The notes under the pieces: model-generated
Database searches by the model: none
Seen by the model: the letters and a program-made list of their open reading frames with translations, nothing else
What the model was told of the DNA's origin: nothing
Source: a virus
Reading direction: 5' to 3' (one strand)
Virus record (IMG/VR): IMGVR_UViG_3300043433_000028
DNA length: 64,000 nucleotides
Translations under genes and position numbers: made by a program
Shown here: piece by piece, positions 6,984-44,248 of the stretch
Layout of the letters: every line of letters starts with the position of its first letter
Numbering within the stretch: position 1 is the first letter of the stretch

Positions 6984-7229
6984 ATGAACTACATTTTCCG
7001 ACCAGAAAATTACAAAGATTGGGCAAAATTGGCTATTCAAAAAATAGAGAAGACAATTGATTCATGTACCACTGTAGCTCAAGTAGATGTATCGAAAAGA
7101 ATGATTGATAACTTTGTAATAATAACTGCACTAGAGGAAGATATTAAAGAGGAGGATCTAGAATCAATCATCAGATTATTTTGGTTAAAAATTGATCTAA
7201 AAAAACAAATTATTTTTGAAACAAAATAA
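6984..7229 (+). CDS. Hypothetical protein
   Basis: 81 aa ORF directly after a promoter. Confidence 0.6.
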   Translation: MNYIFRPENYKDWAKLAIQKIEKTIDSCTTVAQVDVSKRMIDNFVIITALEEDIKEEDLESIIRLFWLKIDLKKQIIFETK

Positions 7230-7245
7230 AATTATCCTGTATAAA
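7218..7245 (+). promoter_or_regulatory. Putative middle promoter GAAAC-N17-TATAAA
   Basis: Motif and spacing match; lies upstream of 7269. Confidence 0.65.
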
Positions 7246-7268: not shown

Positions 7269-8699
7269 ATGAACTTCGTAGACGCATTAAGACAAGAGGA
7301 CATCACAACAGAAAATGGAATGGCAACAAATTCAACTTCTTTGAATGCTTGTGTTGACCTATTCTTTAACATTGGAGCAATGAGAGGACAAGACAAACAA
7401 CGTTTGATCGCAACCTTTTCAAAAGCATTCAATGAAGATCCTAAACGTGCTATGAAACTTTTGTTTTGGGCAAGAGATGTTCGTGGTGGAGCAGGAGAAC
7501 GTCAAGTTTTCAAAGACATTTTAGTTTACTTAGCAGAAAACCACGATTTGGTTCTAAAACCAAACTTACATTTAATTCCAGAGTATGGTCGCTGGGACGA
7601 TTTATTAGTTCTTGTAGGAACATACTTAGAAAATGCAGCATTCACCCTAATTTCTGATGCAATCATCGCTGAAAATGGGTTATGTGCAAAATGGATGCCA
7701 CGTAAAGGAGTTATTGCTGAAAAATTACGTAAATTTACTGGAATGTCGCCAAAACAATATAGAAAATCTTTAGTAGGTTTAACTAATGTTGTTGAGACTA
7801 AAATGTGTGCTAAAGATTGGGACTCTATCGAATTCGGTAAATTACCATCAGTGGCTTCTGCAAGATACCAAAAAGCATTTGGTAAAAATGCATACGAAAG
7901 TTATTCAGCGTATATCCAATCTTTAGTAAAAGGAGAGGCTAAAATTAATGCAGGTGCTGTATATCCTTATGATGTTGTTAAATCATTAAATCACGGTAAC
8001 TCAACTGTAGCAAACGAGCAATGGAAAGCCCTTCCTAATTATTTAGAAGGAGCAAACGATATGATTTTACCAGTAGTTGACGTTTCTGGTTCTATGGATT
8101 GTTCAGCAGGAGGTAGTAAAAATGTAACATGTATGAACGTTGCAATCTCTTTAGGACTTTATATTTCTGAAAGAAATGAAGGTCCTTTCAAAGATGCTTT
8201 TATTACTTTCTCAGATAACCCGCAATTACAAGTATTAGGTGGTTCATTGAACGATCGCTACGCACAGATGGCATCTTCCGATTGGGGAATGTCTACAAAT
8301 CTCGAGGCAACGTTCAAGCTGATTTTAAATCAGGCCACTAAGCATAAACTATCTCAAGAAGAGATGCCAAATAAAATCCTAATCCTATCAGATATGGAAT
8401 TTAATCATGCAACTAGATCTAACGGATGGAGAAATACTGGATCAGATTGGAATCCAACAGCTCAGCAAATGATTGAGAAAATGTACGAAGATGCAGGTTA
8501 CAAAGTGCCTCAAATTGTTTATTGGAACATTCAATCCAGAAATGGTGGAGTACCAGTATCATTTGACAAACAAGGAACTGCGTTGGTTTCTGGATTCTCT
8601 CCAGCAATTATGACAAGTTTACTTGGAGGAGATATTGAATCTCCACAACAAATAATGGACAAAACAATCTTGAGCGAGAGATACGCTCCAATTGTTTAA
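7269..8699 (+). CDS. DUF2828-family TROVE/Ro60-like protein with C-terminal vWA (MIDAS) domain
   Basis: LFWARDVRGGAGER, YGRWDDL, AKWMPR, DVSGSM (DxSxS), ILSDMEF, IVYWNI, GFS. Confidence 0.8.
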   Translation: MNFVDALRQEDITTENGMATNSTSLNACVDLFFNIGAMRGQDKQRLIATFSKAFNEDPKRAMKLLFWARDVRGGAGERQVFKDILVYLAENHDLVLKPNLHLIPEYGRWDDLLVLVGTYLENAAFTLISDAIIAENGLCAKWMPRKGVIAEKLRKFTGMSPKQYRKSLVGLTNVVETKMCAKDWDSIEFGKLPSVASARYQKAFGKNAYESYSAYIQSLVKGEAKINAGAVYPYDVVKSLNHGNSTVANEQWKALPNYLEGANDMILPVVDVSGSMDCSAGGSKNVTCMNVAISLGLYISERNEGPFKDAFITFSDNPQLQVLGGSLNDRYAQMASSDWGMSTNLEATFKLILNQATKHKLSQEEMPNKILILSDMEFNHATRSNGWRNTGSDWNPTAQQMIEKMYEDAGYKVPQIVYWNIQSRNGGVPVSFDKQGTALVSGFSPAIMTSLLGGDIESPQQIMDKTILSERYAPIV

Positions 8700-9453: not shown

Positions 9454-9729
9454 ATGAACATTTTAGATGAAGCAAGCGGTATCGTAAATAACCGCTCAGA
9501 AGAAGCAGATAGACAATATGGTCCTTTCTCAGAAGGTATGGACAGAGCTGCTATGATTTTTACTGGTATGACAGGAATTGAAGTTACCGGAGAACACATG
9601 TTTAAGGCATTAGTTGCACTTAAATTTTCTAGAGAATCTTACAATCACAAGCGTGATAACTTATTAGATGCAGTTGCATACATCCAAGGATTGGATAACT
9701 ACATCGAAGAAAAACAAAACAATGGTTAA
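9454..9729 (+). CDS. DUF6378-like small alpha-helical protein (family often near nucleotide-metabolism genes)
   Basis: ILDEA..IVN.R...YG.F...ALKFSRES....DNLLDAVAY pattern. Confidence 0.5.
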   Translation: MNILDEASGIVNNRSEEADRQYGPFSEGMDRAAMIFTGMTGIEVTGEHMFKALVALKFSRESYNHKRDNLLDAVAYIQGLDNYIEEKQNNG

Positions 9730-10771
9730 CATTTACGAAGTTTTAGAATCGTTAAAAGGCAAGAAGATTGCAATTGATGATGTTGTAACAACGTATAGCT
9801 CGAAAAAAGCCAGTCATAAAAGTGCATGGGCTTTTCTACTAGCAAATCAATTAAAATCTTTAGGATTGGAGGCAGAAGTACTCACCAAGTCCGAAGATAT
9901 TCATTCATACGATATTTGGATGGTTGCCCTTCCGATGGAATTTCAAGGGTCTTATAATCTATTTGGTGGAGCAACTGATGAGCCAGCGGAGAGAATTAAA
10001 AGATTCTTAGATTTTAAAGGACAAATCTATTGTTTAAACCGTGAAATGCCAGATGTTGGAGCCTTTGCTCAAAGTCGAATGAGAGCATGCTCAGAATTAT
10101 GGGCAACTCTTGATGTTGAAGCACTTACAAAAAGAAGTAAAGAAACCGAAACAATTGAACTTAAATTAAATTCAGGTACTTTTGTCTTAGGAGATTCTCA
10201 CTCAGTTTCAGTGTATCATCCTGGAGGAAACATCAGCAGAAATGATGGTAAAACATTATTTGGTGTTATGAAAGAGGGAATGCAAACCTACATTCCTGAA
10301 GGGACCACTCATTTGATAACATACTTCGGTAATATCGATGTTAGACATCACTTATGTCGCCAAGAAAAACCAGTTGATGCAACTAAAAAACTTGTAAAGA
10401 ATTATTTTGAACATCTAAAATCTCTTAATATTGAAAAGATTTCAGTTGTTAAATTACTTCCAATTGAGTTTGAAGAACGCAGAATCCCAAAGACTGGATA
10501 TTACAAAGGAACCCCATTTATCGGTTCTCAGCGAGAAAGAACTCAGTTAATGCAGATCTTTAACGAAGAGGTTGTAAATCTCTCGGCTATATATAATATG
10601 AATGTAATCGAATGGCCAAGTAATTGGTACGAGGAAGATCCAAAGTATTTTGCTGATACTTATATGGAGAAACCAGGTTCCGTTCATTTATCTAGAGAGT
10701 TTTATCAATATGATTTCGAGACGTCCGAAAAAAATAAAACATTAAAGAAAACTATTAACAGTCTTTTTTGA
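9722..10771 (+). CDS. T4 beta-glucosyltransferase-like N-terminal domain fused to an SGNH-like domain; putative DNA-modifying transferase
   Basis: KIAI...GLEAEVL...SYD...SYNLFGG...KGQIYCL parallels recalled T4 BGT; C-domain GDSH, GNID, SVHL; start moved to ATG 9722. Confidence 0.5.
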   Translation: MVNIYEVLESLKGKKIAIDDVVTTYSSKKASHKSAWAFLLANQLKSLGLEAEVLTKSEDIHSYDIWMVALPMEFQGSYNLFGGATDEPAERIKRFLDFKGQIYCLNREMPDVGAFAQSRMRACSELWATLDVEALTKRSKETETIELKLNSGTFVLGDSHSVSVYHPGGNISRNDGKTLFGVMKEGMQTYIPEGTTHLITYFGNIDVRHHLCRQEKPVDATKKLVKNYFEHLKSLNIEKISVVKLLPIEFEERRIPKTGYYKGTPFIGSQRERTQLMQIFNEEVVNLSAIYNMNVIEWPSNWYEEDPKYFADTYMEKPGSVHLSREFYQYDFETSEKNKTLKKTINSLF

Positions 10772-10797
10772 AACTTTTTAAATAAAGCAAGTATAAA
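10770..10797 (+). promoter_or_regulatory. Putative middle promoter GAAAC-N17-TATAAA
   Basis: Motif and spacing match; lies upstream of ino1. Confidence 0.7.
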
Positions 10798-10824
10798 TTA
10801 ATATAAAATTAAATTTTTAACAAA

Positions 10825-12021
10825 ATGAACAAAATTAAAGTTGGAATTATTGGCACAGGAAATTGTGCAAAATCATTGGTTGAAGGAGTTCAATTCTATA
10901 CAGAAAATACGAACAACATTACTGGAATGATGAAATCTGATATTGGAGGTTACAAAGCCGAAAATATTGAATTCGTATGTGGATTTGAAATCGACGAACG
11001 TAAAGTTAACCAAACTTTAGGAGTTGCTTTAAAACAAAAACCAAACTGTGCGTATGACATCGTTGATGTTATTACTTCTACAGCTCCGGTTTATGAAGCA
11101 CCTGTTATTGATGGTTATGCTGCATTAATGGATAACTATCCAGAATCAAACAGATTTTTAGTTGATGAGAAATTAAGAAACTCAACTGATAAAAATCGTA
11201 CTGATTGGACTCCTAGAAAATCTAGAGAGTGGAAGGACCAAATCATCGCTAAATTAAAAGAGCATGAAGTTGAAGTATTGGTAAACTATTTACCAGTAGG
11301 TTCTCAAAAAACTACAGAATTTTGGGCTGAAATTTGCTTAGAAACTGGAATCTCTTTCGTAAACTGTATTCCTGTATTTATTGCATCAGACCCAGCATGG
11401 GAGCAAAGATTTATCGACGCTGGAATTCCATTGATCGGTGATGATATGCGTTCTCAATTTGGAGCAAGTATTCTTTCTCAAATGTTGCAAGAACTTGCAT
11501 TTGAAAGAGGTCATCATGTAAAAGCGCACATTCAACGTAATGTTGGAGGTAACACAGATTTCTTGAACATGGAAGATAAATCTCGTTTAGCTTCTAAAAA
11601 GATTTCTAAAGAAAACGTTATCCGTGCTCAAAATGAAATTAGAGGAATCTCAACTGAAGATTCATTTTTACATGCAGGTCCTTCTGAGTATATCTCATTC
11701 TATGGAGATAACAAAGTTGCTAACTTCCGTTTAGAACTTGAAGGATTTGGAGGAGCGCCAGTTCTTTTTGATGCTCAATTAAGTGTGCAAGATTCACCAA
11801 ACTCTGCAGGAGTTGTGATCGATGCTATCCGTTACTTAAAAGTAGCGAGAGAATTAGGAGTTGTAGGAGCATTAAGAGGTCCTTCAGCGTTTACTCAAAA
11901 AACTCCACCAGATCAAATGATGTTTTCTGATGCTGTTTATGAATGTACTGAATTAGCTGCAAGACGCTTAACTGATTCTACAAGAAAGCAATTAGTTGCA
12001 AAAACTAATAAAGCTCTTTAA
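10825..12021 (+). CDS. ino1: myo-inositol-1-phosphate synthase (bacterial type)
   Basis: GIIGTGNCAKSLVEG Rossmann motif, VNYLPVGS, FVNCIPVFIA, GDDMRSQFGA, NVGGNTDFLNM, KKISK, DSPNSAGVVID. Confidence 0.93.
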   Translation: MNKIKVGIIGTGNCAKSLVEGVQFYTENTNNITGMMKSDIGGYKAENIEFVCGFEIDERKVNQTLGVALKQKPNCAYDIVDVITSTAPVYEAPVIDGYAALMDNYPESNRFLVDEKLRNSTDKNRTDWTPRKSREWKDQIIAKLKEHEVEVLVNYLPVGSQKTTEFWAEICLETGISFVNCIPVFIASDPAWEQRFIDAGIPLIGDDMRSQFGASILSQMLQELAFERGHHVKAHIQRNVGGNTDFLNMEDKSRLASKKISKENVIRAQNEIRGISTEDSFLHAGPSEYISFYGDNKVANFRLELEGFGGAPVLFDAQLSVQDSPNSAGVVIDAIRYLKVARELGVVGALRGPSAFTQKTPPDQMMFSDAVYECTELAARRLTDSTRKQLVAKTNKAL

Positions 12022-12036
12022 TTAATTAATCTATGA

Positions 12037-12064
12037 AAAGAGAGCTCAAGGGCTCTCTTTTTTT
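12037..12064 (+). terminator. Intrinsic terminator
   Basis: AAAGAGAGC-TCAAGG-GCTCTCTTT followed by a T-tract. Confidence 0.8.
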
Positions 12065-12081
12065 ATCAAAAAAGTCAGGGA

Positions 12082-12483
12082 ATGTTAAATATTTTTAAAA
12101 AGAAACAAACTAACGTCGATGTTTATGGATATGATTTCGACGGAGTAATTTCAATAGGAATTACACCAAGATCAGAAAGCGACGTTATTATAACAGGAAG
12201 ATGCGTTGATGAACAAGAAGAAATCAAAGCAATCTTAAAAGAACGCGGGATTAAATGCAAAGTTTATTTTAATCCAATGACTCTTGCAGAGCGAGGAAAT
12301 CATACAACAAAAGCAAGGAAATTTTCTGGTTATCACAAAGCTAAAACAATACGAGAACTTTTAAATAACGGAGTTAATATTATTAGATTCTTTGAAGATG
12401 ATCCAATTCAATATCAAATCATCCAAGAAAATCATCCGGAATTACAAATTGTAAGCGTAGTATCTTCATTAGTAAAGAAATAA
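12082..12483 (+). CDS. Small capless HAD-superfamily phosphatase
   Basis: DFDG motif I, ITGR motif II, conserved K, FEDD motif IV. Confidence 0.75.
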   Translation: MLNIFKKKQTNVDVYGYDFDGVISIGITPRSESDVIITGRCVDEQEEIKAILKERGIKCKVYFNPMTLAERGNHTTKARKFSGYHKAKTIRELLNNGVNIIRFFEDDPIQYQIIQENHPELQIVSVVSSLVKK

Positions 12484-12485
12484 AT

Positions 12486-13163
12486 ATGTGGACAGTAGAG
12501 CAAAAGCAATTAAATAAATTAAAACGAGAATACTGCTCATATTTAGATGCTACTGAAAGAATCGATAGAGACATGATTAAAGATTGTCTTAAGCATTATA
12601 TACATGATGATGTTGATTATAGTGGCAAAGTATGTTTAGACTTAGGCGGTAACGTTGGGGGATTTACAAAAATTGCAATCGACGGAGGAGCATCAGCTGT
12701 TTATACAGTAGAATGCGATCCAAGAAATTATGCAAAATTATCAAATAGTTTCGCAGAAGAACCAAAGGCAAATATTATCCATGCTGCTGTTTCTGGGTGT
12801 GATGATGAAACTATTAAGATTTATAAAGGAAATTCAGCAGGATCACATTGTTCAACTTCAATTCTTAAAAGAAGTTCATTTGGAGAATATGATGAGGTTA
12901 GAAATATTCACATCAAAGAATTATTAGAAACATACAAACCAGATATTATCAAAATTGATATTGAAGGAGCAGAGTATGATATAATTCAAGATGTTGCTGA
13001 TTATTATCCGGAAGTTATCTTTGTAGAATTGCATATGGGTAAAGTAAAACAATTCGCACAGCCAACAATTGAATTATTAACTTCGTTATACCCAAAAAAT
13101 CAAGTTAATAGTTTTGAAGTTTTCAAACATATCGGAGGTTACGATTGCTGGTTTAAAAAATAA
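12486..13163 (+). CDS. FkbM-family SAM-dependent methyltransferase
   Basis: LDLGGNVGGF, VECDP, HAAV, IKIDIEGAEY. Confidence 0.85.
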   Translation: MWTVEQKQLNKLKREYCSYLDATERIDRDMIKDCLKHYIHDDVDYSGKVCLDLGGNVGGFTKIAIDGGASAVYTVECDPRNYAKLSNSFAEEPKANIIHAAVSGCDDETIKIYKGNSAGSHCSTSILKRSSFGEYDEVRNIHIKELLETYKPDIIKIDIEGAEYDIIQDVADYYPEVIFVELHMGKVKQFAQPTIELLTSLYPKNQVNSFEVFKHIGGYDCWFKK

Positions 13164-13171
13164 AAATACAA

Positions 13172-14221
13172 ATGGAAAACTTAGCAGAAATTGCAAACAT
13201 GGACATTATTAGAGATGTAGGAAGATTCTTTAATAAAGTTAATGAAAGAGCCCTTTTCAATATGGGTGTTCTTGAAAGTTACGATAGTGGAGGCGATGAA
13301 GCACTTGGAGAAACTGTAGAATATTTCCATCCACAAATTACATTGGATGATCGTATGCGATACATCATGGAGAACATTGTAAATGCTCCAATGTCGATGG
13401 ACAATATTATATGCAATACAATTATTTCTCACTTCTATGGAGCCAGAGGTATTCACCAAGTCTTAACAAGAGACCCAAATCCAAAAACAGCACTAGTCGA
13501 TTTTGAAAGGCTTTTAGTTGATCGAGAATATGAGAATAAAATCCGTAAGAATTTAGAGGATGCTGTTTCTTTAGGTTTACCAATTTATGGATCTACCGAA
13601 TTACGTACCAGTCTTTTTGGGGCTGCAAATAATTATGTTGCTGAATTGAGAAATCAACCAAGAGATGCTCATAAAATTAACATTCTCTTATGGGTTGCCT
13701 CTTTTATACCTCGAGGAATCACTGGAAGAATGGCCCAGGTTAACTCTTTATCTGAGATGTTTAATATACTAACAGAAATTGAAGGTGTAGGGTCTTATTA
13801 CGGATATCACTGTTCGACGTCAAATTCTGTAAATCCAAGAATCAATATAGACCATGATGAAAGATATTGCGTTCCAGGTCCTGGCGCTAGATTTACTTTA
13901 GATTTAATATTTGGAGCAAATTGCACAGTTCCTCATGGTGATAGAGTTATTTGGTTCAGAGAAAACTATAAAGAACTTATTGGAGAAATTCCATTACATG
14001 AATCTACTCATAATATTGTAGTTGATGGAAAAAAGATCTTTAGACACGAACAAGATGAGCTTAAAACCTATGGATGTGAGGTTGGACTTTGTCAATATGG
14101 TGTTTATTACCGACTAAGAAGTAATCCACATTTAATTAGCCGAAGAAAAGTTGCCAGGGTTGATGATAATCTAATGGAATATTTTTTTAATAATAATTTT
14201 GAACAAAACGCTCTTTTTTAA
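13172..14221 (+). CDS. aGPT-Pplase1 / 5-hmdU DNA kinase helical-like protein (HhH fold DNA base-modifying enzyme)
   Basis: LDDRMRYI, IEGVGSYYGYH hairpin, VPGPGARFTLDLIF, EVGLCQYGVY match the family pattern as recalled. Confidence 0.6.
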   Translation: MENLAEIANMDIIRDVGRFFNKVNERALFNMGVLESYDSGGDEALGETVEYFHPQITLDDRMRYIMENIVNAPMSMDNIICNTIISHFYGARGIHQVLTRDPNPKTALVDFERLLVDREYENKIRKNLEDAVSLGLPIYGSTELRTSLFGAANNYVAELRNQPRDAHKINILLWVASFIPRGITGRMAQVNSLSEMFNILTEIEGVGSYYGYHCSTSNSVNPRINIDHDERYCVPGPGARFTLDLIFGANCTVPHGDRVIWFRENYKELIGEIPLHESTHNIVVDGKKIFRHEQDELKTYGCEVGLCQYGVYYRLRSNPHLISRRKVARVDDNLMEYFFNNNFEQNALF

Positions 14222-14227
14222 TATAAC
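14201..14227 (+). promoter_or_regulatory. Putative middle promoter GAAC-N17-TATAAC
   Basis: Variant with the same spacing. Confidence 0.5.
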
Positions 14228-14245
14228 AACTATAAAAAATTAATT

Positions 14246-14713
14246 ATGGCAAATATAGACAATGAATGTAAAGATTTGGAAGTAAAAAACTTTTACGATG
14301 AATCTACAACACACTTAGCCGACATCATGGAAAACCAAAAGAAAATGCAAGAGCAAACTTATGGTTTTAATTTCGAAGAGATGTCAATTAGAGATATTAT
14401 GAACTTTTGGCATGTTAATACACATGCTGTAGTTGATGAAATTCACGAAATGACAGATGCTCTTGGAGGTATTAAAGATGGGAGCGGAAATGCAGTATGG
14501 AAATACTGGAAAAAAGACTTTTCAAAGTTTGAAACAATGAAAATTTCTGATCTTTCAGAAGATGACAAGAAAGAACTTTATATGGAATGGGTAGATATTT
14601 TACACTTCTTTATAAACTATGCATCTTCAATCGGATTAGATGCAAAAACAGCATACAATTATTACTTTGCGAAAGCAGAAGAAAATGTTAACCGTCAAAA
14701 AAGAGGATATTAA
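14246..14713 (+). CDS. gp56: T4 gp56-like dCTPase/dUTPase (all-alpha NTP pyrophosphatase)
   Basis: DEIHEM..ALG...AVWKYWK...EWVDILHFFIN...ENVNRQKRGY closely parallels T4 gp56. Confidence 0.8.
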   Translation: MANIDNECKDLEVKNFYDESTTHLADIMENQKKMQEQTYGFNFEEMSIRDIMNFWHVNTHAVVDEIHEMTDALGGIKDGSGNAVWKYWKKDFSKFETMKISDLSEDDKKELYMEWVDILHFFINYASSIGLDAKTAYNYYFAKAEENVNRQKRGY

Positions 14714-16111
14714 ATGATACTAGACATCGAACAGCGTGAAAAAGATGTAATCATTTCATACTATAATGACAAAGGAGAAGTAGCATTCAAACAATATCCA
14801 GTGGACAAGTTCCAAAACTGGTATGTTTGTGATGATAAAGACAGAGCGGCTAGCCCAGAATATAAAAACTGGGACGGCCGTTCGGTCAAATTAGGATATG
14901 GAAGACAATTTAATAAGTTTTCTATTCTTTATTTCTTAGATAGCCTTTCTGAGAAAGATAAAGCTGACTTAACAGCTTACAATATGCCGAAAACTTATTT
15001 CGTCGATATTGAAACTGAGATTGTTGATGGATTCCCAAAAGCTGAAGAGGCTAAAAGTAGAATTCTTTCATTCTCAATCATTACGCCAGATCGTAAAGCA
15101 ATTGTATTGGGTCTTGAAGATATGGAATCTGATAAAATCCAAAAGATTCAAGATGATACTAATGAGTATTTCAAAGATTTTGATATGGACTGGGAATTTA
15201 AGTACCATAAGTTCAAATCTGAATATGATATGGTGAATACATTCTTAATGAAATTCTTACCTAAATTTCCAATGATGACAGGATGGAACTTTATCAACTA
15301 TGACTGGCAATATATTGTTAATCGTTGTAAAAGACTTCAAATTGATATTAAAGAAGTTGGAATGACAGGAGCTATAGATAATACCGATGGTCGTCCATTA
15401 CATATTGGAATTCTTGACTACATGCAGTTGTATGATAAATATGACCGTTCGGTTAAGGTAAAAGAATCAAACTCTCTTGATTATGTTTCTAGTCAAGTCC
15501 TAAAAGTTAACAAGATTAAATTTACTGGATCTCTTCAAGATTTATATCGAGATAATTTTGTTAAATATATCTACTATAACGTAGTCGATTCAGTCCTGGT
15601 TTATTATATAGACCAGAAATTAAAATCGATGGAGGTACTTTTAACTCTTGCAAACATTACAAACATGCCACTTTATAAGGCAAGTTCTCCAGTGGCAGTT
15701 ACTGAGGCGATTATGGCCAGAAAACTTGCAGAACAGGGAATGAGAATTGGAAGTGAAGAAAAAGCAGATGGTCAAAAAGATGGCCAATATGCTGGAGCAT
15801 TTGTAAAAGAACCAATTCTAGGATTTTATGAAGGAGTAAGTGCATTTGACTTTGCTTCACTATATCCTTCAATTATGCGTCAGTTCAATATATCACCCGA
15901 CGCTTACATTGAAAAGATTTATAAAAGTGAAATTGATGAAAGACGCAAAGACAAGAACGTAATTGTATGTGATAATGGAGTAGTATATAAGACCGAAGAT
16001 TCGATCCTTAGAAAGATATTAAGTGACTTATATGCGCAACGTAAAGATTACAAGAAAACTTCATACGAATACTTTACAAAAGCCGACAGGTTATCTAAAA
16101 GACTTAGATAA
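14714..16111 (+). CDS. gp43A: Family B DNA polymerase, N-terminal half (3'-5' exonuclease + motif A)
   Basis: DIETE, TGWNFINYD, YNVVD, DFASLYPSIMRQFNISP; ends in the first fingers helix. Confidence 0.9.
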   Translation: MILDIEQREKDVIISYYNDKGEVAFKQYPVDKFQNWYVCDDKDRAASPEYKNWDGRSVKLGYGRQFNKFSILYFLDSLSEKDKADLTAYNMPKTYFVDIETEIVDGFPKAEEAKSRILSFSIITPDRKAIVLGLEDMESDKIQKIQDDTNEYFKDFDMDWEFKYHKFKSEYDMVNTFLMKFLPKFPMMTGWNFINYDWQYIVNRCKRLQIDIKEVGMTGAIDNTDGRPLHIGILDYMQLYDKYDRSVKVKESNSLDYVSSQVLKVNKIKFTGSLQDLYRDNFVKYIYYNVVDSVLVYYIDQKLKSMEVLLTLANITNMPLYKASSPVAVTEAIMARKLAEQGMRIGSEEKADGQKDGQYAGAFVKEPILGFYEGVSAFDFASLYPSIMRQFNISPDAYIEKIYKSEIDERRKDKNVIVCDNGVVYKTEDSILRKILSDLYAQRKDYKKTSYEYFTKADRLSKRLR

Positions 16112-16140: not shown

Positions 16141-17118
16141 ATGAATAACATTTTTGAAAAAAGAGTAAATATTTTACCTTACGAATACCCTTCATTACTA
16201 GCATATAAAGATGCAATCCGACATTCTTATTGGATTCATACAGAATTTAACTTTACTACAGATATCGATGACTTTATGACTAAAGTATCTGATTCTGAGC
16301 GTGAAGTAATCAAAAGAGCAATGCTTGCAATTGCTCAAATCGAAGTTAACGTTAAAACTTTTTGGGCAGATCTTTACAAAAGAATGCCAATCACTGAAAT
16401 TGGAGATGTTGGTATGACATTTGCAGAATCTGAAGTAAGACACAAAGATGCTTACGCACAATTATTAAGAATCTTAGGATTAGAAGACGAATTCCAAAAC
16501 GTAGTAGAAATTCCAGCAATTAAAGATAGAATTGCATACTTAACAAAGTATTTGGATGGTACAAGAAGTAAGGACAATAAAATGTATACGAAATCCGTAT
16601 TGTTATTTTCATTGTTTATTGAACACGTTAGTTTATTTAGTCAATTCTTTATTATGATGTCTTTCAACAAGGAGAGAAACTTATTTAAAGGTATTTCAAA
16701 CGTAGTTGAAGCAACTTCAAAAGAAGAGGAAATCCATGGAAACTTTGGATCTGAATTGATCAACATTATTAAGAGAGAAAATCCAGAATGGTTTGATGAG
16801 GAATTTGAACAACTTATAGATTCTGCTTGTAAAAAAGCATATTTAGCAGAGGTTAAAATTCTTGATTGGATTTTTGAAAAAGGAGAACTTGATTTCCTAT
16901 CAAAAGAAACCATCAAACAATTTATTCAAAACCGTTTCAATAATTCTTTACAAAGAATTGGAATGAAACCAGTATTTGATGTTGATTTTACAGAAGTAGA
17001 AAAAAGCTTATGGTTTGACGTTGAGATTCTTTCAACTAAAGAGGGAGACTTTTTTTACAAGAAAAGTGTCGATTATAATAAAAAATCTAAGGCAATAACT
17101 GAAGACGATTTATTTTAG
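16141..17118 (+). CDS. nrdB: Ribonucleotide reductase small subunit (class Id-like)
   Basis: AIAQIEVNVKTFW, SEVRH..AY, EHVSLFSQF, EEEIH, tail ITEDDLF. Confidence 0.93.
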   Translation: MNNIFEKRVNILPYEYPSLLAYKDAIRHSYWIHTEFNFTTDIDDFMTKVSDSEREVIKRAMLAIAQIEVNVKTFWADLYKRMPITEIGDVGMTFAESEVRHKDAYAQLLRILGLEDEFQNVVEIPAIKDRIAYLTKYLDGTRSKDNKMYTKSVLLFSLFIEHVSLFSQFFIMMSFNKERNLFKGISNVVEATSKEEEIHGNFGSELINIIKRENPEWFDEEFEQLIDSACKKAYLAEVKILDWIFEKGELDFLSKETIKQFIQNRFNNSLQRIGMKPVFDVDFTEVEKSLWFDVEILSTKEGDFFYKKSVDYNKKSKAITEDDLF

Positions 17119-17177: not shown

Positions 17178-17999
17178 ATGAATTGGACAATCATATATAA
17201 AAACCTAATAGATAATGCAATCCTAGAAAAAAGAACCAAAAGTACTGAAATATATTATGAAAATCATCATATTGTCCCAAAACATATGGGAGGTGATAAT
17301 TCAAATGATAATTTAGTACTTTTGACATTTAGAGAGCATGTATTAGCGCACTATTTATTATGGCGAATTTATAAAAAAGATGGCGATAAAATAATGCGGT
17401 TACTTCGAAGCAATCAAAAAGAAGAGGCTCAACTTCTTCGTTCTAAATTAGCAGTTGCATCAAATAGAAATGGAGGTAAAGGATTTCAAAATTGGAAAGG
17501 AGAAAAGCATCCACTAAAAGATCCATTAAAAGTTAAACAGGCATTAGAAACCAAACGAAAAAATTACGATGGTGAATTAATGTCAAAGGAAGTTAAAGAA
17601 GTATGGCTTCCAAATCTTATAAATAGAATGAAGGAAATGGCAAAGGACCCTGAAATACAAGAAAAAAGGTCTAATACCATTAAACAAATTAATGCAACCC
17701 TAACGCCGGAAGAATTTGCACTAAAATATAATAATGCCGGCGAAAATAATGGAAACTTTGGTTGGATTAAAGGATATTATGAAGTAATCGACCCTAACGG
17801 AAACATTACTAAATATGAAAGCCAAGAAAACATTATAAAAGAGTTAAATGTATCTCAATCTTTTTTAGTTAGAAATAGAAATAAAGGAGTATTGTATACA
17901 AAACCAAAGAAAAATGCCGGACAATGGAACGGATGGACTTTTAATTATTTTAAGCTCCCATGTCCAACTACGGGTAGAATACAAAAAGAACACAAATAA
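17178..17999 (+). mobile_element. Free-standing HNH homing endonuclease gene between nrdB and nrdA (MobE-like position)
   Basis: ENHHIVPKHMGGDNSNDNLVLLTFREHVLAH. Confidence 0.85.
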
Positions 18000-19697: not shown

Positions 19698-20381
19698 ATG
19701 AATTGGAAAAGAGTGCACGATCAAATTATTGAAAGAGCTCAGAATAGAACTTTAGAGGGATATTCTGAGCTTCATCATATATTACCAAAATGCTTAGGCG
19801 GTAATGATGATAAAAATAATTTAATTAAACTTACCGCAAGAGAACATTTTATAATTCATAAGATACTAAATATTTTGCATCCTGAAATAGAGGGTCTTAG
19901 GTATGCTGTATGGATATTTGTAACTTTTAATGACAATAGAGGTATTAGAATAGGTTCAAGAGAATATGAAAGACTTAGAACATTATTTTCAAAAAGTGCC
20001 TCAAAAAGAATGAAGATAAACAATCCATCACATAGCGGATTATCTAAAGAACATAAAGAAAAAATATCAAAGGCTGGAGTTGAAAGATTTAAAGATCCTA
20101 ATGAAAGAATTAAAGCTAATTCCTTTAAAGATTTAACAGACGAAGAACGTAAGAAAAGAATTAAAGTTTGGTCAAATGCATCAATGGGTCCAAAGAATGG
20201 AAGATTTAAATGGGACAAACGCGTTAATCAAATTGATAAAGAATCTGGAGAAATTATAAACGTATATGAATATCCTAGATTAGTTCAAAATGATGGTTTT
20301 AGTTCAAAATATGTTATTAATTGTTGTAATAAAAAGTCAAAGTCTCACGGTGGATTCCTATGGGAATGGCGTGAAGGATAA
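19698..20381 (+). mobile_element. Free-standing HNH homing endonuclease gene with NUMOD-type DNA-binding tail
   Basis: ELHHILPKCLGG...NNLIKLTAREHFIIH; C-terminal CCNKKSKSHGGFLW. Confidence 0.85.
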
Positions 20382-23194: not shown

Positions 23195-23944
23195 ATGAAA
23201 GTAGTTATCAACAAAGTAGATCAGAACAACTTTGTAGCATTCATTAATCGTTTGAGAGTTATTGATTCCTTTGTCTATTTTAAGATTAAAGACGAACAAA
23301 TCATCTCTTCAGCTTATTTGCCACAACGTGACGCTGTAAAACACCACAGACTTCCAATTTCAGAAGTATTCCAAATTGATGCAAGTCAATTAACAACAGA
23401 CAAAGACCTTAAAGTGGCTTTCTTTGACGCTGGAAAAATCATCGAAGCATTCAAACAATTTGAATACGATTCTATTCAAGCAGAAATTGAATTCGTAGAA
23501 AACGATGAAGACTGTGTAGCTTCTACATTTAAAATCTTTAATGACGAGTTAGAAATCGTTTTAGCTTGTTCAGAACCATCTTTAGGTTACAAAGATTTGA
23601 CAGAATCTCAATTACAAAATATCTTCATGACAGAAGGCGCTGAAGTTAATTTTGATTTATCATACACTGATACTTCTAAAATTAAATCTCTTTTCAACTT
23701 AGATAAAGATGAAACTTTTGCAATCTCAACTTCTAAAGAAGGTGTTCGTATCAAAGGTAAATCTTACAACAAGTTAATCAATTCAGCTAGCGTTTCTAAG
23801 GCTAATGTGACTGTTTACAAAAAGTATTTGAACTTATTTGACAAAGAAGATTATTCTACTTATGTCTTTAACAATAGAGTAGTTTTACGCTCTAAAGATT
23901 CAAACACTCTTTTAACAATCGCAACTTGCCAAAGCACTGATTAA
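23195..23944 (+). CDS. gp45: Probable sliding clamp (gp45-like)
   Basis: 249 aa acidic alpha/beta protein translationally coupled to the polymerase half; assignment mostly from size and context. Confidence 0.6.
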   Translation: MKVVINKVDQNNFVAFINRLRVIDSFVYFKIKDEQIISSAYLPQRDAVKHHRLPISEVFQIDASQLTTDKDLKVAFFDAGKIIEAFKQFEYDSIQAEIEFVENDEDCVASTFKIFNDELEIVLACSEPSLGYKDLTESQLQNIFMTEGAEVNFDLSYTDTSKIKSLFNLDKDETFAISTSKEGVRIKGKSYNKLINSASVSKANVTVYKKYLNLFDKEDYSTYVFNNRVVLRSKDSNTLLTIATCQSTD

Positions 23945-25140
23945 TGACTATTGAAAAACTACTTAATAAACCAGAAGACCAACTAACATTGGCCGAGCTT
24001 AAATCCTTAGCAGACTTTTATTCAAATGAGTCTGCTAAGTTTACAGCATATGAACAAGCAGTTAAGTTAACTCTTAACTCGATCTACGGAGCCTTTGGTA
24101 ATAAGTGGTTTCACTTCTTTAACATCGACATTGCCGAATCTATTACTTTGCAAGGTCAAAATGCAATCTTATATTCTGAAAAGATACTTAACAAGTACTT
24201 TCAAGAATTCTTTGTCAAAGATACTAAAATTCATGAAGAATTAAATATCAAAGTTAAAAGAGCTTGCGTTAAACCTGCAGTAATTTACATCGATACTGAC
24301 TCAAACTATGTTCAGTTTCAAGAGATGTATGAATCTATCGAATGGTTAGGTGAAAAACTAGATATTGTAACGTTTATCCTTAAGATTTACAACTTACGTA
24401 TCAAAGATTACATCGTTAAATCATTAGACAAATACGCTGAAAATAGAAACACAGAATCGTTCTTGGTTTTCGAATTAGAATCTATTGCATACTCAGGTAT
24501 TTGGATGGCTAAAAAGAAATACTTACAGAATTTAGCATGGGACGATAAACTAGGTGAAAGCGAAAGACATGCAATGTTAAAGAAGATCAAAACTATTGGT
24601 TACGATACTATTCAATCTTCAACACCGATGTTTGCTCGTAAGAAACTATCAGAAGCCCTACAAATTCTTTTTGAAAAGAAGCCAACACCAGAAACTCTAA
24701 CAACTATCGTTTCGTTTCTTAAGAAGGCAAAGAAAGAATTTAAGTTAGCTCCAACTGATGAGATCTCTTTTAATAAGAGAACAAACAACTTAGAGAAGTA
24801 TATCGTTGACGATCACGTTGAGTTTCAATATGGATTAAAATGTCCACCTAATGTTAAAGCAGCTGGATTTTACAATTACTTGATGAATAATAATCCCAAG
24901 TATAAAAACAAATACAGAATGATTGGTAATGGTGAAAAGCTAAGATTATATCATTGCGAGCATAAAACTTGTGAGATCTTTGCATATTTACCAGGTGATC
25001 ATCCTTATGAATTTGCACCGGCAATTGATTATGAAACTCAATTTGAAAAATCTGTAATTGATCCATTGAATAGAGTTTTAGACTGTATAGGTTTACAGAC
25101 ATTAAATAGAAATTTAATTTATTCAACATCATTATTTTAA
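23944..25140 (+). CDS. gp43B: Family B DNA polymerase, C-terminal half (motifs B, C, thumb)
   Basis: KLTLNSIYGAFG, YIDTDS, KKKY, IGYDTIQSSTP. Confidence 0.9.
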   Translation: MTIEKLLNKPEDQLTLAELKSLADFYSNESAKFTAYEQAVKLTLNSIYGAFGNKWFHFFNIDIAESITLQGQNAILYSEKILNKYFQEFFVKDTKIHEELNIKVKRACVKPAVIYIDTDSNYVQFQEMYESIEWLGEKLDIVTFILKIYNLRIKDYIVKSLDKYAENRNTESFLVFELESIAYSGIWMAKKKYLQNLAWDDKLGESERHAMLKKIKTIGYDTIQSSTPMFARKKLSEALQILFEKKPTPETLTTIVSFLKKAKKEFKLAPTDEISFNKRTNNLEKYIVDDHVEFQYGLKCPPNVKAAGFYNYLMNNNPKYKNKYRMIGNGEKLRLYHCEHKTCEIFAYLPGDHPYEFAPAIDYETQFEKSVIDPLNRVLDCIGLQTLNRNLIYSTSLF

Positions 25141-33841: not shown

Positions 33842-34294
33842 TTGGCAACAAACACTAAAATTACAGAACAAAAGCCCGCAGTTGTTGAAACTCCAACGCC
33901 GGTTAAGAAACCAGCCAGAAAGAAAAACTATTTAAACAATAGGGATTTATACGATCAAATCGTGCTTTCAAAAGAGCAAGAAAAATTAACTAAAGAAGCT
34001 GAGAAGATGCTTATTCTCTTGGCAGAAAAAGCAATCAATAGAATGAGATATGTTGATGAAAAAGACAGAGAAGACTGTTTATCATTTGCTATTTTAGATT
34101 TATTAAAATATTGGAAAGGCTTTAACCCAAAGTACACCAATGCATTTGCATACTTTACAGAAATCGCAAAAAGAGGTTATGCTAAAGGTTGGAATGCAAT
34201 TCACCCAGAAAAATACAAAGGCACTATATCATTGAACAAAGCTAATTCTCACAATGGAGAAGACAGCGATATGGGTGGAATTTACACAATCTAA
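33842..34294 (+). CDS. gp55: Late-transcription sigma factor (gp55-like)
   Basis: NYLNNRDL, EDCLSFAI..LLKY..GFNP...NAFAYFTEI; TTG start. Confidence 0.88.
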   Translation: MATNTKITEQKPAVVETPTPVKKPARKKNYLNNRDLYDQIVLSKEQEKLTKEAEKMLILLAEKAINRMRYVDEKDREDCLSFAILDLLKYWKGFNPKYTNAFAYFTEIAKRGYAKGWNAIHPEKYKGTISLNKANSHNGEDSDMGGIYTI

Positions 34295-43279: not shown

Positions 43280-43297
43280 ATGCATAAACATAAAGAT

Positions 43298-44248
43298 ATG
43301 ATTCGAGCACTATTTACAGAAAAATACAGACCTAAGAATTTAGAGGACTTAATTTTACCAGACAGAGTAATGAATAAGTTCAAAGATGGCTTAACACAAA
43401 ACATGCTTTTAGCTGGAAGTCCAGGCACAGGCAAAACTTCAACAGCCAAAGCTATTGTTAATCAGTTTAATTTACCATATTTGTACATTAATGCTTCGAC
43501 AGATACTTCGGTTGAGGTAATTAGAACTAGAATTACAGATTTTTGTTCAACGATGTCAGTCCTAGATGATCAAGGCAAATTCAAAGTAGTTTTATTAGAT
43601 GAGGTTGACGGTGTATCAGATCAATTCTTTAAAGCTCTTAGAGCAACTATGGAACAATTCGCAGCTAATTGTAGATTTATTGCAACATGTAATTACGTTA
43701 ATAAAATTCCAGATCCAATTCTTTCTCGTTTTGAAGTTATTAATTTTGACTTCGACAAATCAGAAGAAACTGAATTGACTAAAAAATACATCAAACGTGT
43801 TTATGAAATTTGCGGCAAAGAAGAAATGACAATAGATAAACCAGCTTTGGTAGAATTTGTCAAAAGAAACTTTCCAGATTTAAGAAGCACATTAAATAAG
43901 TTACAAGGTTATAAAACAAGCGGCACTACTAATATTACAGTAGAAGACGTTAAGAAATTTAACTCGGTTTACAAAGATCTATTTGAATTGATCTTTAACG
44001 AAACTGACCCGGTTAAAAACTATAAATTATTAGTTAGTGAATACTCAAATAGAGTAGACGATGTTTTACAGTCACTTGGCAGTGATTTTGTAGAATATAT
44101 CCAAACAGAAAGACCGAATAACGTAAAATCTATTCCACAAATTATAATTTCTGTAGCAGAACACCAAGCGCAAAGAGTACATGTTATTGATCCAATCATC
44201 ACCATGTTATCGTGTGTTTACAAATTACAAGAAATTGTAAGATCTTAA
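43298..44248 (+). CDS. gp44: Clamp loader AAA+ subunit
   Basis: EKYRP, GSPGTGKT, INAS, LLDEVD, SRF, DLR; start moved to ATG 43298. Confidence 0.93.
   Translation: MIRALFTEKYRPKNLEDLILPDRVMNKFKDGLTQNMLLAGSPGTGKTSTAKAIVNQFNLPYLYINASTDTSVEVIRTRITDFCSTMSVLDDQGKFKVVLLDEVDGVSDQFFKALRATMEQFAANCRFIATCNYVNKIPDPILSRFEVINFDFDKSEETELTKKYIKRVYEICGKEEMTIDKPALVEFVKRNFPDLRSTLNKLQGYKTSGTTNITVEDVKKFNSVYKDLFELIFNETDPVKNYKLLVSEYSNRVDDVLQSLGSDFVEYIQTERPNNVKSIPQIIISVAEHQAQRVHVIDPIITMLSCVYKLQEIVRS

Follow-up and report, generated by a model that had tools for sequence, protein, structure and literature searches.

Why should an uncultured aquatic phage with T4-type replication genes encode an inositol phosphate synthase in a row of genes for enzymes acting on DNA? 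The question is raised by a 64,000-nucleotide (nt) stretch of viral DNA (IMG/VR record IMGVR_UViG_3300043433_000028), analysed over its whole length and referred to here as the window, in which the genes at 9454-16111 had been read in a first-pass annotation as a pathway that makes inositol and attaches it to a hydroxymethylated pyrimidine in phage DNA. The eight open reading frames (ORFs) of that run were all present on the plus strand, and the interpretation as a whole was partly supported. The architecture of both DNA-acting enzymes, ORF3 and ORF7, is established and a route through a DNA kinase is excluded. Judging from gene content, we regard it as an evenly balanced call that the cluster is a module for post-replicative modification of 5-hydroxymethylcytosine (hmC) with its own cyclitol supply. 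The proposed link between inositol synthesis and DNA-acting genes held up in gene order, in a gene fusion and in three cultured phage groups, whereas the attachment of inositol itself stands as a prediction.

Architecture of the two DNA-acting enzymes

ORF3 (9722-10771) joins a domain related to the N-terminal domain of T4 β-glucosyltransferase (BGT) to an SGNH hydrolase/acyltransferase domain. Its reading frame was listed from 9668; because homologues are about 349 amino acids (aa) long, the real start was taken as the ATG at 9722, so that ORF3 and the stop codon of the preceding DUF6378 gene overlap by 8 nt. ORF3 had no match in Pfam (E-values up to 10), NCBIfam or Atlas, and the fusion called in the first-pass annotation passed explicit tests of both halves. 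In profile-profile comparison (hhalign), residues 32-126 aligned with T4 BGT residues 1-100 at 95.5% probability (E = 1.6e-8, 89 columns) when BGT was represented by a 26-sequence family profile, and comparison with the single T4 BGT sequence gave only 30%. An NxFGG loop was common to both proteins, with BGT N70, G73 and G74 opposite the invariant ORF3 residues N97, G100 and G101, and the catalytic Asp100 of BGT lay opposite ORF3 position 126, an acidic residue (Glu or Asp) in 33 of the 43 sequences aligned. From the same 43-sequence alignment an AlphaFold2 (AF2) model was obtained with a predicted local distance difference test (pLDDT) score of 88, in which residues 167-350 form an SGNH fold (VIA Z up to 12.5, best match 4rsh; Foldseek probability 1.0); more than 40 SGNH entries besides 4rsh were matched. 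G175-D-S177-H, G194, G221-N222-x-D224 and S338-x-H340 were invariant throughout, and the SGNH catalytic set was intact (Ser of block I, Gly of block II, Asn of block III and His of block V), with Ser in block V where Asp is usual. The UDP-glucose-binding domain of BGT was absent from ORF3, as the alignment ended at BGT residue 100 and the C-terminal half was SGNH. ORF3 therefore combines the hmC-binding half of BGT with a different catalytic module. Membership of the BGT family proper (PF09198) was rejected on the lack of both a Pfam match and the UDP-glucose domain.

ORF7 (13172-14221) was named in the first-pass annotation as an enzyme of the aGPT-Pplase1/HMUDK type, and the name proved sound: it matched PF18723 (HMUDK_hel, formerly aGPT-Pplase clade 1) with 50.4 bits against a gathering cut-off of 25. 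M6 gp55 belongs to the same family (190 bits); the M6 5-hydroxymethyldeoxyuridine (5-hmdU) kinase gp54 belongs to PF18748 and the M6 glycine:DNA transferase gp51 to PF18724. The AF2 model of ORF7 (pLDDT 92) showed a helix-hairpin-helix (HhH) glycosylase-type fold. Its nearest solved structure was PaMx11 gp46 (8z2m), a 5-phosphomethyldeoxyuridine (5-PmdU) glycinyltransferase, ranked first by Foldseek (probability 0.97) and matched with a VIA Z of 9.4 over 230 residues. The next 22 matches were all of the HhH-glycosylase type (20 DNA glycosylases and two queuine-salvage DUF2419 chains), after which Z was 3.9. A single E-x3-C motif (E303, C307) lies near the C-terminus and was invariant in 44 sequences. 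One such motif was also present in a divergent paralogue in close relatives, in the distant L040 lineage, in a fusion protein of Aeromonas phages, in RP13 ORF120 and in M6 gp55, and likewise in M6 gp51 (E243, C247) and the transferase of phage Cr30. In PaMx11 gp46, Glu243 holds a metal at O4 and Cys247 attacks C6 (PMC11472151), and mutation of the Cys or the Glu abolishes the activity of M6 gp51 and ViI gp247, the latter using a serine hydroxyl as its nucleophile, so that an oxygen nucleophile works in this transferase chemistry (PMC8989533).

ORF7 did not match PF18724 at E-values up to 10, reached a probability of 0.2% against the Cr30 transferase in hhalign, and its family profile matched no PDB sequence; structure search and motif alone tie the two families. 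ORF7 was therefore rejected as a member of the amino acid:DNA transferases, with which it has only fold and catalytic motif in common, and from its model it may work like them.

hmC as the predicted target base

The window held no thymidylate-synthase-family gene and hence no hydroxymethylase, as the first-pass annotation had noted. Deposited phages gave no DNA-level match to the window, and genome-wide statements are drawn from related genomes. Five IMG/VR genomes of 145-236 kb with Ino1 94% identical were searched for the hydroxymethylase, and three long genomes for the dCMP deaminase, that the proposed pathway calls for; both turned up. All five carried a divergent 284-aa ThyA-family homologue, whose best solved relatives were T4 dCMP hydroxymethylase (1b49, 8e-15) and the CMP hydroxymethylase MilA. 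This gp42-like protein keeps Cys148 and has Asp opposite T4 Asp179 (L088, L040 and Aeromonas phage 31), a position occupied by Asn in ThyA and in the M6 dUMP hydroxymethylase. Canonical ThyA was found in the four longest relatives (200-236 kb), and dCMP deaminase in all three of the long relatives tested. Two shorter contigs have both ThyA and the hydroxymethylase-like gene no more than 10 kb from the cluster. In the related large genomes, canonical ThyA spans 415-424 aa and contains large insertions compared with ordinary ThyA (L087:1483-2730, L084:1222-2496). In the window itself, the gene at 14246-14713 encodes a 155-aa homologue of the T4 gp56 dCTPase/dUTPase, as annotated, with 31% identity to T4 gene 56 (T4 16273-16602) over residues 48-155 (E = 9.2e-17), 32% identity to its Aeromonas phage 31 counterpart and a match to phrog_173 (1.5e-12).

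The Asp at the specificity position points to hmC rather than 5-hydroxymethyluracil (hmU), and hmC is the more likely target on these genes; hmU was set aside as less likely given that Asp and the presence of ThyA. Of the hydroxymethylated pyrimidine first proposed, the cytosine form is thus favoured over the uracil form, through an Asp-type hydroxymethylase in relatives. The gp42 homologues of RB69 and DLP3 have been assigned to 5-hydroxy-dCMP synthesis (PMC13326640), and for that reason the exact C5 substituent is one that we infer.

Two known systems frame this prediction. As in T4 hmC glucosylation, a gp56 homologue is present, relatives carry a gp42-like enzyme of the Asp type, dCMP deaminase and ThyA, and the N-terminal domain of ORF3 is homologous to the BGT acceptor domain. 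Unlike in T4, the module has no UDP-glucose domain, PF09198 was not matched in any genome tested, the donor half is SGNH, and a cyclitol synthase is encoded in place of reliance on host UDP-glucose. The gene content of the relatives therefore corresponds to that for hmC in T4, except that ORF3 and ORF7 replace the glucosyltransferases. The second system, the thymidine hypermodification of M6, PaMx11, ViI and PhiW-14, is approached in that ORF7 lies in the sister family PF18723, as M6 gp55 does, and has the fold and E-x3-C motif of PaMx11 gp46, with ViI gp247 providing the precedent for an oxygen nucleophile. It differs in that neither the P-loop 5-hmdU kinase (PF18748, searched in five genomes) nor PF18724 was matched in the relatives, the base is predicted to be cytosine rather than uracil, the cluster has no pyridoxal phosphate (PLP), radical S-adenosylmethionine (SAM) or flavin tailoring enzymes, and the partner protein is the BGT-N/SGNH fusion. 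The usual company of PF18723, a 5-hmdU kinase and a dUMP hydroxymethylase, was likewise missing, the hydroxymethylase found being of the dCMP type. The M6/ViI pathway is therefore not simply copied here, and in its classical form it was dropped as a model.

The same findings bear on whether there is any hypermodification at all. The cluster could be a mixture of nucleotide-pool genes and unrelated metabolic genes in a phage whose DNA carries plain cytosine or plain hmC. The window without a hydroxymethylase, a clade known from genes alone and the unproven activity of PF18723 would all fit such a view. Against it, the BGT acceptor domain with its invariant SGNH residues and the invariant E-x3-C motif are conserved down to 35-45% identity, and every relative that is complete enough has gp42-like genes together with ORF3 and ORF7. 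We consider an unmodified or merely hydroxymethylated genome very unlikely.

Putative cyclitol supply genes and their genomic company

The gene at 10825-12021 encodes, as annotated, a homologue of inositol-3-phosphate (myo-inositol-1-phosphate) synthase, Ino1. It matched PF01658 (81.2 bits, E = 7.5e-23, cut-off 27), phrog_33138 (1.9e-146) and TIGR03450, the model for mycothiol Ino1 (292.9 bits, 3.4e-87), without reaching the equivalog cut-off of 638 of the last. Like Mycobacterium tuberculosis Ino1 (1gr0, 2e-79), to which most of its length aligned (query 3-99 and 140-366), it keeps the NAD-binding N-terminus and the SKKISK region. Unlike that enzyme, the viral copy stands in a DNA-modification context, has about 40 residues inserted after position 100, is paired with a HAD-type phosphatase rather than a classical inositol monophosphatase, and has Arg for the Lys of the GDDxK motif. 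This position is Lys in M. tuberculosis and Archaeoglobus fulgidus and in phage Ps15 (Menderavirus), Arg in the window, Cr30 and RP13, and Ala in 6k96, a five-membered cyclitol phosphate synthase that was the second-best solved relative (1.8e-41); archaeal and eukaryotic synthases were also more distant than 1gr0. The Lys-to-Arg change leaves the cyclitol product uncertain, and together with the score below the equivalog level it means that the product may differ from myo-inositol phosphate. From its sequence, the protein is highly likely to be an inositol-phosphate synthase, although a degree of doubt attaches to the product.

These features leave room for a synthase that makes a different cyclitol phosphate, such as an aristeromycin-type five-membered carbocycle, or for a product used at the nucleotide level before replication, by coupling to hydroxymethyl-dCMP, with ORF3 and ORF7 then trimming or finishing the group on DNA. 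The rank of 6k96 with its Ala at the Lys site, the score far under the NCBIfam cut-off and the position of the cluster amid nucleotide-pool genes (gp56, ribonucleotide reductase and polymerase) speak for such a scheme. The phage enzyme is nevertheless far closer to bacterial Ino1, its other hallmark motifs are kept and the Menderavirus copy has the Lys; ORF3 and ORF7, for their part, both have DNA-binding, base-flipping folds and therefore point to post-replicative chemistry. Both variants are, in our view, rather improbable.

Downstream of Ino1, ORF5 (12082-12483) is a minimal HAD-type phosphatase without a cap domain. The HAD call was borne out by all four motifs, D18-x-D20-G-V, T38-G-R, K86 and D106-D107 (EDD), which were invariant in 11 homologues. 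ORF5 had no Pfam, NCBIfam or PDB sequence match (profile against PDB included), and among profiles it matched only phrog_415 (polynucleotide kinase (PNK) phosphatase), weakly, at 4.4e-4. Homologues with 40-46% identity lie just downstream of Ino1 in Ps15, Cr30 and RP13, and the HAD gene was always paired with Ino1. The next gene (12486-13163) encodes, as had been called, an FkbM-family SAM-dependent methyltransferase (PF05050, 3.8e-17; TIGR01444, 9e-18), a variable accessory that was absent from the L040 lineage. In many close relatives (L002-L037; Ino1 91-98% and ORF3 74-96% identical), FkbM was only 44-50% identical, and the PF18723 copies were in some cases only 26-36% and in others 73-77% identical. 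The methyltransferase/transferase pair is exchanged as one cassette, in keeping with a trait on which defences exert pressure.

Expression signals set Ino1 somewhat apart. The motif GAAAC-N16-18-TATAA occurred eight times in the window, where 1.54 matches were expected and all of 100 shuffles stayed below eight; seven of the eight lay on the plus strand, most of these just upstream of genes. Within the cluster, a promoter-like match (GAAAC-N17-TATAA) occurred only at 10770-10796 on the plus strand, directly before Ino1. A motif of the same class directly precedes the clamp loader gene at 43280. The common promoter class that had been proposed for the cluster therefore holds for Ino1 and the clamp loader, and it heads Ino1 and what follows, not the whole run. 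At 12038-12068, between Ino1 and the HAD gene, the plus strand can form a terminator-like hairpin (a 7-bp G+C-containing stem and a short loop) followed by a T-run; a consensus terminator scan did not list it, and the Ps15 record has an annotated terminator right after Ino1. With a promoter-like motif and a hairpin on its flanks, Ino1 may be expressed above the downstream genes. The genes of the run are otherwise tightly packed, with successive gaps of -8, 53, 60, 2, 8, 24 and 0 nt.

The linkage of Ino1 to the DNA-acting genes was followed across phages in 80 IMG/VR loci out of 121 confirmed. The order DUF6378-ORF3-Ino1-HAD-(FkbM)-ORF7 was kept wherever the contig reached. The first gene of this conserved module (9454-9729) encodes a small helical DUF6378 protein (PF19905, E = 1.1e-8) and immediately precedes ORF3 in almost all of the 80 loci and in L040. 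That second lineage keeps the gene order at 24% identity in polymerase, about 38% in ORF3 and about 47% in ORF7, and directly upstream of its cluster carries an Asp-type hydroxymethylase-like gene and a trimeric dUTPase. The expectation that Ino1 would stay with the DNA-acting genes in relatives was thus upheld in both.

Deposited phages with an ORF3 homologue comprised 38 Aeromonas records, two of IME13 and three of Tenacibaculum. ORF3 and ORF7 form one 795-aa protein (phrog_17781) in Aeromonas phages 31 and 44RR; in phage 31 it is ORF233c (L092:7184-11164; NC_007022 160183-164163; E749-x3-C753). Beside the fusion, ORF234c encodes a vSGLT-like Na+/sugar symporter (2xq2, 9e-104). Petrov et al. 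2010 (PMC2993671) name exactly phages 44RR, 31 and 25 as carrying 42, 56, alc and denB without a glucosyltransferase, and with a further modification of unknown nature. We confirmed gp42 (Asp type) and ThyA in two of these phage groups, and by their sequences ORF233c and ORF234c are candidates for the glucosyltransferase-less hmC modification of 44RR and 31. In the phage-25-like, gp42-positive Aeromonas phage 50AhydR13PP (L093:4673-7942), genes for UDP-galactopyranose mutase, a 358-aa protein and an ORF3 homologue are consecutive, a row that hints at a galactofuranose-related DNA modification. The sugar or polyol supply gene beside the ORF3 module thus differs from lineage to lineage.

Ino1 was found in 19 deposited phage records. 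The Menderavirus copy and an adjoining HAD homologue stand between FolE and QueC-DpdA-QueE. In Cr30, a TET/JBP dioxygenase (annotated as SNF2; PF12851, 8.7e-23) is followed within 7.5 kb (L082:2706-10257) by an amino acid:DNA transferase (PF18724, 1.3e-52), a protein with a weak resemblance to TAGT (E = 8.5e-4, 19.7 bits, under the 27.5-bit cut-off), Ino1 and HAD. These matches mark the row as a hypermodification cluster, not annotated as such, in a phage that is in culture. In RP13, a strong PF18723 gene (ORF120, 161 bits; L083:3915-4889) lies 3 kb upstream of Ino1. RP13 also encodes, elsewhere in its genome (L097), a 346-aa divergent thymidylate-synthase-family protein without the Asn/Asp specificity loop. 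As four lineages with Ino1 and HAD have four different partner chemistries, chance adjacency is unlikely; the tie of Ino1 to DNA modification is an association rather than proof.

This association has to be set against another view, in which ORF3 and ORF7 modify hmC with a non-inositol group (an acyl group or a host-derived sugar) and Ino1 and HAD are an auxiliary metabolic pair that yields free inositol, placed in a permissive early or middle region. Such inositol might serve as an osmolyte, supply host lipids or the cell envelope, or interfere with host pathways. Acyl groups, rather than cyclitols, are the usual substrates of SGNH enzymes, and Ino1 has its own promoter-like motif and terminator-like hairpin. 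The two pairs also occur apart, ORF3 and ORF7 without Ino1 in the 38 Aeromonas records, and Ino1 and HAD without ORF3 and ORF7 in Menderavirus and Cr30, so that the two halves are separable. An independent metabolic pair is harder to reconcile with the position of Ino1 and HAD within or beside DNA-base-modification genes in four lineages, with a different partner enzyme each time, and with their insertion between two genes that are fused elsewhere. Nor does a lipid role generalise to Stenotrophomonas, Caulobacter and Ralstonia, the hosts of cultured carriers, from which, to our knowledge, inositol lipids are not known. Supply of inositol to the lipids of host Bacteroidota was rejected as a general explanation, since the cultured Ino1 carriers infect Proteobacteria. 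On balance we find an auxiliary role for Ino1 and HAD unlikely, and the foremost of the alternatives.

A proposed cyclitol route to modified DNA

If the cluster does modify hmC, a route can be outlined. The gp42-like dCMP hydroxymethylase, the gp56 homologue, dCMP deaminase and ThyA would replace dC by hmC at replication, as in T4. ORF3 would bind hmC DNA through its BGT-type acceptor domain and present the hydroxymethyl group to an SGNH site rather than a UDP-glucose site, where it may be esterified, a step that would take the role of the 5-hmdU DNA kinase in M6 and ViI. Ino1 and the HAD phosphatase would make inositol from glucose-6-phosphate. After base flipping by ORF7, its Glu/Cys pair would attack C6 and expel the leaving group from the 5-methylene carbon, and a hydroxyl of myo-inositol may then take its place. 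Alternatively, inositol phosphate might be attached first and dephosphorylated on the DNA by the cap-less HAD enzyme. FkbM may O-methylate the inositol ring in some lineages, and the product would presumably shield the DNA from restriction enzymes and similar defences. In its most specific form, we tentatively propose that widespread T4-like phages of water, and separately Cr30, RP13 and perhaps Menderavirus, have myo-inositol, sometimes O-methylated, in ether linkage to the 5-methylene of hmC, with the BGT-N/SGNH protein forming the ester and the PF18723 Glu/Cys transferase exchanging it, and with the fused pair explaining 44RR, 31 and 25; this full version is possible, and clearly less probable than a cyclitol-supplied hmC module as such.

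Several observations count against a cyclitol-supplied hmC module. Besides the Arg and the sub-equivalog score of Ino1, the hairpin that separates Ino1 from the downstream genes, the separate occurrence of the two halves and the window without a hydroxymethylase, the hydroxymethylase comes only from relatives whose Ino1 is 83-94% identical, and the modified base in these phages is predicted from genes alone. M6 gp55, the only PF18723 protein studied, could be dispensed with in vitro and is without a known activity. In a bacterial chromosome (Crocinitomix algicola LYPF02000017.1, L111:9599-12212), an ORF7 homologue with 51% identity lies between a helix-turn-helix (HTH) gene and an integrase, with Schlafen/AlbA, NUDIX and a PLD-helicase restriction-like gene nearby and with neither Ino1 nor ORF3 at the locus; it may reflect a defence or mobile-element use of the base-flipping fold. 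Activation by the SGNH site is conjecture, since the search for candidate genes turned up neither an acyl donor nor an acyl-activating enzyme. We would regard the acyl donor for ORF3 and the activity of PF18723 as the weakest links of the scheme.

A T4-like phage with a supply pathway of its own is not without parallel. RB69 and DLP3 reportedly arabinosylate 5-hydroxycytosine through a nucleotide sugar and GT-B glycosyltransferases (PMC13326640). They resemble the phage studied here in being T4-like, in lacking T4-type glucosyltransferases and in encoding a supply pathway with a small HAD phosphatase, of the PNK type in RB69 and DLP3 and weakly matched to the PNK profile here; in contrast, the present cluster shows no sugar-1-kinase, nucleotidyltransferase or complete glycosyltransferase.

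The surroundings of the module are those of a T4-type phage. The window is A+T-rich (about 31-35% G+C), has nearly every gene on the plus strand and includes a clamp loader (43280-44248), a gp55-like late sigma factor (33842-34294), ribonucleotide reductase and a split family B DNA polymerase. The N-terminal half of the latter (14714-16111, plus strand; PF03104 exonuclease and the start of the polymerase domain PF00136) flanks the module and lies outside it, and the C-terminal half follows at 23944-25140. The two halves are separated by nrdB, nrdA and a pair of homing-endonuclease-like genes (17178-17999 and 19698-20381; phrog_655), the first of which is missing in several relatives. Just upstream of the module, a DUF2828/DUF7788 (TROVE/Ro60-like) protein is encoded at 7269-8699, preceded by a GAAAC-N17-TATAA motif at 7218-7244.

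Phage DNA hypermodifications known so far append sugars, amino acids or polyamines, and no inositol-bearing DNA base was found described in the literature searched. A cyclitol on DNA would, if true, be a new class of appended group, and one that could already have been misread as glucosylation because it has the same mass as a hexose (+162.05 Da). It would also imply a new enzyme logic, in which the acceptor domain of BGT has been refitted with an SGNH active site, and the enzymes of the module might serve to label hmC in DNA. Cultured phages, namely Cr30, RP13, Menderavirus and 44RR/31, carry parts of the system. If the proposal is right, it would give PF18723 its first function, and the fused ORF3-ORF7 protein would explain how hmC DNA is protected without glucosyltransferases in Aeromonas phages 44RR, 31 and 25.

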